A stretch of 64,000 bases of DNA from Escherichia coli (GTDB lineage Bacteria > Pseudomonadota > Gammaproteobacteria > Enterobacterales > Enterobacteriaceae), in the NCBI RefSeq assembly GCF_003334335.1, contig NZ_QOWQ01000002.1; one strand, 5' to 3'. Under the pieces are notes generated by a model. It did no database searches. It was not told the DNA's origin and worked only from the letters and a program-made list of their open reading frames with translations. The position numbers were made by a program, and so were the translations under genes. This document shows positions 27,206-40,782 of the stretch, piece by piece. The stretch's first letter is position 1. Each line of letters starts with the position of its first letter.

Positions 27206-27208
<3 letters not shown>
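24359..27208 (+). CDS. rcsC: Hybrid sensor kinase of the Rcs phosphorelay, 949 aa; TTG start
   Basis: Full ORF MKYLASF...; H-box HELRTPL; C-terminal receiver domain. Confidence 0.93.
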
Positions 27209-27401
<193 letters not shown>

Positions 27402-31058: not shown

Positions 31059-31151
31059 AAAAAAAACCGAATGCGAGGCATCCGGTTGAAATAGGGGTAA
31101 ACAGACATTCAGAAATGAATGACGGTAATAAATAAAGTTAATGATGATAGC
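31059..31151 (-). ncRNA. micF: micF antisense sRNA (93 nt) with terminator hairpin and U8 tail
   Basis: Reverse complement matches the known MicF sequence GCTATCATCATTAACTTTATTT...CGCATTCGGTTTTTTTT; divergent from ompC. Confidence 0.93.
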
Positions 31152-31296
31152 GGGAGTTATTCTAGTTGCGAGTGAAGGTTTTGTTTTGACATTCAGTGCT
31201 GTCAAATACTTAAGAATAAGTTATTGATTTTAACCTTGAATTATTATTGCTTGATGTTAGGTGCTTATTTCGCCATTCCGCAATAATCTTAAAAAG

Positions 31297-37468: not shown

Positions 37469-39127
<1,659 letters not shown>

Positions 39128-39129
39128 TG

Positions 39130-40290
39130 ATGCGCCACATCCGGCATGGTATGCCGGATGTGGCGTATGCTGATAAGACGCGCCAGCGTCGCATCAGGCA
39201 ACCGGCTCGGGCGTTAGATGTTGGATGCGGCGTAACCGCCTTATCCAACCTACGGGGTGGAGCACTTCACAGCGGTGTAGGCCTGATAAGACGCGCCAGC
39301 GTCGCATCAGGCAACCGGCTTGGGCGTTAGATGTCGGATGCGGCGTAACCGCCTTATCCGACCTACGGGGTGGAGCACTTCACAGCGGTGTAGGCCTGAT
39401 AAGACGCGCCAGCGTCGCATCAGGCAACCGGCTCGGACGTTGGATGTCGGATGCGGCGTAACCGCCTTATCCAACCTACGGGGTGGAGCACTTCACAGCG
39501 GTGTAGGCCTGATAAGACGCGCCAGCGTCGCATCAGGCAACCGGCTTGGGCGTTAGATGTCGGATGCGGCGTAACCGCCTTATCCGACCTACGGGGTGGA
39601 GCACTTCACAGCGGTGTAGGCCTGATAAGACGCGCCAGCGTCGCATCAGGCAACCGGCTCGGACGTTGGATGTCGGATGCGGCGTAACCGCCTTATCCAA
39701 CCTACGGGGTGGAGCACTTCACAGCGGTGTAGGCCTGATAAGACGCGCCAGCGTCGCATCAGGCAACCGGCTCGGGCGTTGGATGTCGGATGCGGCGTGA
39801 CCGCCTTGTCTGACCTACGGGGTGCCGCACTTCACAGCGGTGTAGGCCTGATAAGACGCGCCAGCGTCGCATCAGGCAACCGGCTCGGGCGTTGGATGTC
39901 GGATGCGGCGTGACCGCCTTGTCTGACCTACGGGGTGCCGCACTTCACAGCGGTGTAGGCCTGATAAGACGCGCCAGCGTCGCATCAGGCAACCGGCTCG
40001 GGCGTTGGATGTCGGATGCGGCGTGACCGCCTTGTCTGACCTACGGGGTGCCGCACTTCACAGCGGTGTAGGCCTGATAAGACGCGCCAGCGTCGCATCA
40101 GGCAACCGGCTCGGGCGTTGGATGTCGGATGCGGCGTGACCGCCTTGTCTGACCTACGGGGTGCCGCACTTCACAGCGGTGTAGGCCTGATAAGACGCGC
40201 CAGCGTCGCATCAGGCAACCGGCTCGGGCGTTGGATGTCGGATGCGGCGTGACCGCCTTGTCTGACCTACGGGGTGCCGCACTTCACGGC
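39130..40290. repeat. Large tandem BIME array: about ten 113-bp units, each with two inverted REPs; three 226-bp double units of alternating variants, then five near-identical 113-bp units
   Basis: Periodicity counted directly (103+123 bp alternation, then 113 bp steps at 39791, 39904, 40017, 40130, 40243); phantom 78-84 aa ORFs in track are repeat artefacts. Confidence 0.9.
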
Positions 40291-40293
40291 AGT

Positions 40294-40782
40294 TTAGCGA
40301 ACTACCGCGTTGTCAATTTTCTCTTCCGCCTTCCAGACGCGGTACTTCACATCTACATTGTCTGGCGTATACACCACGATCGGCAGCTTGCTGTTGTAAC
40401 GCAGCATTCCAGCATCGCCCAGATACGCGGTGACAAATTTCTTCTCTTTCTTGCCATCCGGGCAGGCCATCATCGTTGAAACCGGGGAACTGACTTTATC
40501 AAAGACATAATAATCATAGCCCCAGCCTTCCAGCGTTTTGTTTTCCAGCTTCCCGCCGAGACGATGCAAATTGCAATCGACTTCCAGCGTCTGACCGATT
40601 AACAGTTCTACTTTCAGGGTAGATTCATCTTCTTGCGGGGTTAACTGAATCACCTGACGCTTCATCCCTTTTTCAGCTTGTGGATAAGGCGCGATTTTTT
40701 CCAGTGGCTGGACGCTTTCTGCCGCCCAGGCGGAAGTGGTAGCGAAAGCGGCAAACAATACTGCAGGTAGAATGGTCTTCAT
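40294..40782 (-). CDS. eco: Ecotin, periplasmic serine protease inhibitor, 162 aa
   Basis: Track ORF trimmed to [10 protein letters not shown] start. Confidence 0.93.

Follow-up and report, generated by a model that had tools for sequence, protein, structure and literature searches.

The 1,166-bp spacer between the convergent genes mqo and eco in the Escherichia coli stretch analyzed here (the window, 64,000 nucleotides from a single assembly) is filled by a tandem repeat, a BIME-2 array of ten 113-bp units, more than in any of the 5,426 complete genomes of the species that were examined. Taking origin and function together, this array is very probably a hyper-expanded allele of the BIME-2 cluster that resides between eco and mqo in K-12. 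The element, its class, its targeting by gyrase and the variability of its copy number had already been described, and the sole new fact is an allele of record length, about 1.7 times as long as the longest BIME-2 interval listed for K-12.

Tandem Repeats Finder (TRF) returned one array at 39170-40287 with a period of 113, 9.9 copies, 97% matches, 0% indels and a score of 1984, and printing the repeat in register gave ten units between the two genes (Table 1). With T1 to T5 standing for the distinct unit sequences, the order in the window is T1 T2 T3 T2 T3 T4 T4 T4 T4 T5, and this allele carries 20 REPs within 1,124 bp. The terminal T5, directly adjacent to the stop codon of eco, is a T4 truncated and diverged over its last 6 nt. 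A previous sequence-only reading of this DNA had proposed a 113-bp periodicity with about ten units, which the TRF run bore out, and the motifs that it quoted (ccttatccaacc, ccttatccgacc and gtgaccgccttgtctgacc) were all found in the array. The last five units, which it called near-identical, are indeed alike, with T5 differing as described. Other details had to be corrected. The first part of the array, taken for three 226-bp double units, actually consists of five units, a T1 followed by two T2-T3 doublets, and the array proper begins at 39170 and not at 39130, where a separate palindrome is located. The end of the array had been placed 4 bp from the eco stop; the distance is 6 nt by the TRF end and 0 nt by unit homology (with 2 mismatches), and the closest REP hairpin, the Y REP of unit 10, lies 23 nt away.

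Table 1 Features of the mqo-eco region and other features found in the window.
Feature	Position	Strand	Evidence and remarks
mqo (malate:quinone oxidoreductase) CDS, 548 aa	37481-39127	+	ORF list; named mqo in all matching E. coli genomes; 3' end directed towards the array
Palindrome, 18-nt arms and 3-nt loop	39130-39168		Inverted repeat search, arms 94% complementary; begins 3 nt past the mqo stop
Whole BIME-2 array, ten 113-bp units, 10 Z2 and 10 Y REPs	39170-40293		TRF, register, Z2 consensus, Y positions, minus-strand Rfam naRNA4
Unit 1, T1	39170-39282		Z2 without GTAG tail; Y REP 39220-39253, with a compensated T-A stem pair; Rfam 61.9 bits
Unit 2, T2	39283-39395		Z2 with GTAG tail 39277-39312; Y REP 39333-39366; Rfam 76 bits
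Unit 3, T3	39396-39508		Y REP 39446-39479; Rfam 74.2 bits
Unit 4, T2	39509-39621		Same sequence as unit 2
Unit 5, T3	39622-39734		Same sequence as unit 3; extra relative to MG1655 and FORC_081; makes the T3-T4 junction
Units 6-9, four identical T4	39735-39847, 39848-39960, 39961-40073, 40074-40186		Rfam 63.7 bits each; MG1655 has one T4
Unit 10, T5	40187-40293		Y REP 40237-40270; same terminal unit in most multi-unit alleles
eco (ecotin) CDS, 162 aa in most RefSeq annotations	40294-40782	-	ORF list; stop codon 40294-40296
Two-unit BIME-2	27208-27398	+	naRNA4 matches of 77.5 and 80.4 bits; between the 3' ends of convergent rcsC and rcsB (alignment to FORC_081)
MicF sRNA, full length	31059-31152	-	Rfam 114 bits; upstream of ompC as in K-12
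tRNA	57204-57277	-	Rfam gathering scan; tRNA-Pro by position in ER1821R and DH1
L25 (rplY) ribosomal-protein leader	60993-61018	-	Rfam gathering scan

The start of eco is annotated inconsistently in RefSeq, mostly as a CDS of 489 nt (162 aa, MKTILPAV...) and elsewhere as one of 510 nt (169 aa). An in-frame ATG upstream would lengthen the CDS of the window to 40803 (169 aa).

Every unit is made of one Z2 REP and one inverted Y REP. The 36-nt Z2 consensus (GCCTGATGCGACGCTGGCGCGTCTTATCAGGCCTAC) has nine exact matches in the array, all on the minus strand, against none expected in shuffled sequences, which excludes a chance origin, and the tenth Z2 (unit 1) lacks only the GTAG/CTAC tail. The Y REP (GTYGGATGCGGCGTRACCGCCTTRTCYRACCTAC) is found in ten copies, and the T2-type version has 3 differences from the Y REP of the REP325 cluster over 34 positions. 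The two types are mutually inverted, since on the plus strand GTAG opens the Z2 copies and CTAC closes the Y copies, and the linkers measure 20 nt where REPs meet head-to-head and 23 nt where they meet tail-to-tail. BIME-2 elements have been described as combinations of y and z2 REPs, repeated in tandem, with a copy number that varies among strains, and the linkers of BIME-2 and of atypical BIMEs vary in length and sequence (PMC3333891). The mqo-eco array has Z2 REPs alternating with inverted Y REPs, in tandem copies whose number depends on the strain, and is located outside genes, between convergent stop codons. It is a BIME-2, as the tandem BIME array of the sequence-only reading had anticipated. 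Being a head-to-tail repeat with polymorphic copy number and conserved flanks, it is also a VNTR or minisatellite; a literature search found no report of this locus as an MLVA/VNTR marker and none pairing mqo with BIME.

BIME-1 elements share with the array an inverted REP pair that includes a Y REP, the location outside genes and the position at 3' ends. They are, however, single copies with a Z1 REP and a long L linker that holds an IHF site (PMC3333891), and here there are Z2 and Y REPs in ten tandem copies. The binding of IHF belongs to this L linker and not to BIME-2 (PMC3333891), and none of the three matches of the IHF consensus (WATCAANNNNTTR) in the window falls within 39100-40300. 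BIME-1 (RIB/RIP) was discarded on the REP type, Z2 and not Z1, and on the missing IHF consensus, and the suggestion that arrays like this can bind IHF does not apply to this one. A CRISPR array is ruled out, since what lies between the palindromes is repeated as well, almost unchanged from unit to unit, with no unique spacers. The ORFs of 44-84 aa over the array are by-products of the repeat, whose 113-bp period is not divisible by 3, and protein coding was rejected. The 222-bp repeats known as RRS or "replication risk sequences" (PMC10592627) are close in length to the 226-bp doublet; they are located at lysO and dusC and are unrelated.

In MG1655 the spacer between mqo and eco (2304394-2305107, 714 bp) contains six units, T1 T2 T3 T2 T4 T5. 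The locus, the flanks, the unit types T1-T5, the terminal unit and the mqo-proximal palindrome are all shared with the window, which differs by having ten units instead of six (one additional T3 and three additional T4) and a G instead of an A at position 39132 of the palindrome. A supplementary table of Sutormin 2019 lists 263 BIME-2 intervals for W3110, of which eco>-<mqo (654 bp) is the longest and the second has 582 bp, probably corresponding to REP325 by its position. We infer that the mqo-eco cluster is probably the REP161 of EcoCyc, because the spacer has 601 bp in DH1 (T1 T2 T3 T2 T5) and 714 bp in ER1821R, and this difference of 113 bp fits the "small expansion of REP161" in ER1821R vs DH1 reported in a genome announcement (PMC4982283). 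REP325 itself (naRNA1-6, located between yjdM and yjdN in MG1655) is a similar element, with tandem Z2-linker-Y units (six in K-12), a 3'-UTR position and matches to Rfam RF02564 on the transcribed strand. It differs in its 100-bp unit, in its linkers of 13 and 17 nt, whose sequence is unrelated, and in its genomic context, tandem and not convergent genes, and its overall identity to the mqo-eco cluster is about 75%.

We have compared the number of units in the 5,426 complete E. coli genomes. The coverage given by BLAST with the whole locus is misleading, since off-diagonal pieces are joined and even one-unit genomes reach about 100%; this search retrieved no full-length identical match among the 5,426 genomes, and an evenly spaced sample of its matches had spans of 1, 3, 4, 5, 6 and 7 units. 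The query of the census was a degraded ten-unit sequence that scores all unit types equally, with 98 bits per unit by local calibration, and E-value cut-offs were used as length filters. By this measure, under which strongly diverged arrays could be under-counted, at least two units were present in 1,998 of the 5,426 genomes (about 63% have fewer than two), at least six in about 1,222, at least seven in 167 and at least eight in 6, all of them with exactly eight, and no complete genome had nine or more. The sequence-only reading had put this array at the upper end of BIME-2 clusters, and rightly so, given that the six-unit K-12 allele is already the longest of the W3110 list and that none of the 5,426 genomes goes beyond eight units.

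The eight-unit alleles differ in the order of their units (one of them reads T1 T2 T3 T3 T3 T2 T2 T5), indicating that they expanded independently. At the other extreme, O157:H7 and ST131 have a single unit. Three units are found at the same locus in Escherichia sp. E1V33, which belongs to a separate lineage, indicating that the element is old and fixed in position. In the contigs of the GTDB collection an exact pattern for the junction of the palindrome and unit 1 had no matches, and a second exact pattern for the locus matched only Escherichia sp. E1V33 and not the E. coli representative, which presumably carries a diverged single-unit allele. Variation extends to the laboratory derivatives of K-12, with four units in W3110-P, five in DH1 and TUM24566, six in MG1655 and ER1821R and seven in CP178206; either these lines really changed within a laboratory time scale or their assemblies contain errors. 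The range of one to eight units among the complete genomes and the changes among the K-12 derivatives sustain the idea, already advanced from the sequence, of a hotspot of copy-number variation.

The flanks of the array indicate how recent the expansion is. On the mqo side, 12 kb match FORC_081 and three other genomes with 100% identity and differ from K-12 by one base, and on the eco side 4.4 kb are identical to MG1655. The relatives with identical flanks carry five or six units. With no substitutions in the flanks relative to six-unit genomes, the extra units must be very recent, confirming the recent amplification that had been suspected. The exact T3-T4 junction of the window was found in only 3 of the 5,426 genomes, two of which, a7 and PEC1009, have the order T1 T2 T3 T4 T5 together with the palindrome variant of the window. 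The simplest path would start from such a T1 T2 T3 T4 T5 allele, and one 226-bp duplication of the pair T2 T3 plus the gain of three T4 would produce the order seen here. The locus would behave like a minisatellite, changing its copy number by whole units through unequal sister-strand recombination, replication slippage between direct repeats or, possibly, the addition of units by TnpA-REP/RAYT. The unit T3 looks like a chimera of T2 and T1, as would be expected from in-register exchange: in the table of variable sites the 5' arm of its Y stem is like that of T2 and the 3' arm like that of T1.

It is unlikely that the RAYT protein (TnpA-REP, encoded by yafM), rather than homologous recombination or slippage, added the BIME units. 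The RAYT gene of E. coli is flanked by REPs of the Y and Z2 types (PMC2817692), BIMEs are cleaved and recombined by TnpA-REP in vitro, and there are proposed models of tandem unit addition (PMC3333891). Furthermore, a mobilome preprint includes REP161 among eight REP regions that resist exonuclease under stress, a protection that its authors attribute to the binding of RAYT. However, the same study found no circular BIME intermediates, perfect 113-bp direct repeats offer ample substrate for RecA-dependent or slippage events, the laboratory lines of K-12 show deletions as well as gains, and units that look chimeric, T3 for example, are in keeping with in-register homologous exchange. The RAYT gene is not within the window. 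The array is comparable to the REPIN-RAYT system in having inverted REP doublets of the Y and Z2 types that are tied to yafM, but REPINs are usually dispersed single doublets and this is a tandem array bound to one locus that changes in copy number and not in position. From the sequence, the recombination and RAYT routes are indistinguishable, because the boundaries of the units are not resolvable in identical repeats.

As for function, the binding of gyrase that had been suggested for arrays of this kind is directly documented at the K-12 allele of the locus. The table of Sutormin 2019 gives for the eco>-<mqo BIME-2 11 cleavage sites with ciprofloxacin (Cfx), 7 with rifampicin plus ciprofloxacin (RifCfx), 2 with microcin B17 (Micro) and 5 with oxolinic acid (Oxo), compared to 0, 2, 0 and 0 Topo-seq sites at REP325, and it annotates the locus with "Espeli, Boccard 1997: 6 cuts". 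Gyrase cuts y REPs more often than z2 REPs, and six cuts for the six K-12 units fit this preference. BIME-2 elements as a class are strong gyrase sites independent of transcription and have been implicated as barriers to supercoil diffusion. In the K-12 allele the Y REPs are cleavage sites of gyrase in vivo, about one per unit, and the array would represent a cluster of strong gyrase sites where, judging from its position, the positive supercoils generated by the convergent transcription of mqo and eco meet. The four extra units of the window probably add gyrase sites and hairpins, with the same kind of function.

In addition, the array probably serves both mqo and eco as a bidirectional 3'-UTR element, in which the REP hairpins would attenuate read-through and block 3' exonucleases, by analogy with REP325, itself located between tandem genes. 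Harris et al. (2026 preprint) described REP325 as a partially Rho-dependent attenuator and mRNA stabilizer that produces a ladder of hairpin-ended transcripts. In the same work, the presence of REPs between convergent genes was correlated with higher expression of the two, and no genome-wide effect of REPs on half-life was found. A pattern scan of the spacer detected no intrinsic terminator and no promoter. The z-scores of the RNA folds of single units were not significant, and only the mqo-proximal palindrome stands out, with a dG of -34 kcal/mol and z = -7.0. This palindrome, whose right arm resembles the 5' arm of the Y REP, was seen in all the inspected alleles, from one to ten units, its left arm showing G/A and C/T changes, and is a probable 3'-end hairpin of mqo. 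The left arm reads ATACGCC in K-12, ATGCGCC in the window and ATGTGCC in most others, and the right arm is constant. In the mqo-sense RNA these variants replace Watson-Crick pairs by G-U wobbles, a hint that the hairpin is maintained at the RNA level. A 2-nt GG insertion in the right arm was observed in strains 214-4, C3728, HH194M and 600029.

The unit that was amplified, T4, is the one with the weakest Y hairpin. In its Y REP (e.g. 39785-39818) two stem pairs are mismatched, reading G-T on the plus strand, hence G-U in the mqo-sense RNA, and A-C on the minus strand, and its Rfam score is low. T3 shows the opposite asymmetry in its stem pairs, and for both T4 and T3 selection on the RNA from the nearer gene would be expected to give the contrary orientation. 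That the extra units were selected, with a copy number that tunes the expression of eco and/or mqo or the local supercoiling, as in a contingency locus, seems quite improbable to us. The high polymorphism of the copy number and its shifts on laboratory time scales would be compatible with such tuning, and so would the correlation of convergent REPs with higher expression and the transcript ladder of REP325, which ends at successive hairpins. But the majority of the genomes get by with fewer than two units, and the amplification of T4 runs contrary to selection for stronger hairpins and speaks for a near-neutral expansion. The four extra units may be selectively near-neutral. A still stronger version, in which the locus is a fast-mutating "dial" where gains and losses of 113 bp grade the number of gyrase sites and 3'-UTR hairpins and the ten-unit allele is a selected extreme and not the product of drift, we consider very unlikely.

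The main residual doubt about the hyper-expanded allele is the correct assembly of the identical units, since their count rests on a single assembly. The true allele could have about five to seven units, the ten being the result of mis-assembled identical 113-bp repeats. None of the complete assemblies exceeds eight units, four to five identical units are difficult to count without spanning reads, and some of the differences between the assemblies of K-12 derivatives could be errors too. Nevertheless, short-read assemblers tend to collapse tandem repeats and not to expand them, long reads easily span a 1.1-kb array, the order of the units is regular and derivable from observed alleles in two simple steps, and the existence of alleles with seven and eight units makes ten the extension of a continuous distribution. 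We give this explanation only a slight chance.

All ten units match the Rfam model RF02564 (naRNA4) over its full length (model positions 1-77) on the minus strand, i.e. the eco-sense strand, with 61.9-76 bits for a gathering score of 59.5 bits; the matches on the plus strand (21.7-41.6 bits) are below this threshold. Since the same model also matches the second BIME-2 of the window (Table 1), the similarity appears to reflect the BIME-2 architecture rather than a specific function or RNA gene. It is highly improbable that the array is chiefly a cluster of naRNA4-type genes, with nucleoid-associated RNAs that condense the chromosome together with HU and ten copies giving more RNA: the matches do lie on the strand of eco read-through and Qian et al. 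2015 described HU-binding naRNAs from the architecturally similar REP325, but the model is shared with that other BIME-2 and a 2026 preprint (Adhya among the authors) finds nucleoid volume and long-range contacts unchanged by deletion or overexpression of REP325/naRNA4.

A hyper-expanded allele of the eco-mqo BIME-2 leaves the current understanding of REP and BIME elements unchallenged, and its practical value is limited. For annotation, it means that Rfam naRNA4 matches mark the BIME-2 architecture and not a demonstrated RNA gene. The variation of the array among the laboratory derivatives of K-12 (four to seven units) can serve as a check or sentinel for assembly quality and strain drift. 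If copy number did act as a dial, the number of units would change the expression of eco and mqo or the local supercoiling. With its alleles of one to ten units the locus offers a natural series in which the number of REPs could be set against gyrase cleavage, topological insulation, transcription attenuation and mRNA protection, to see if these scale with it.
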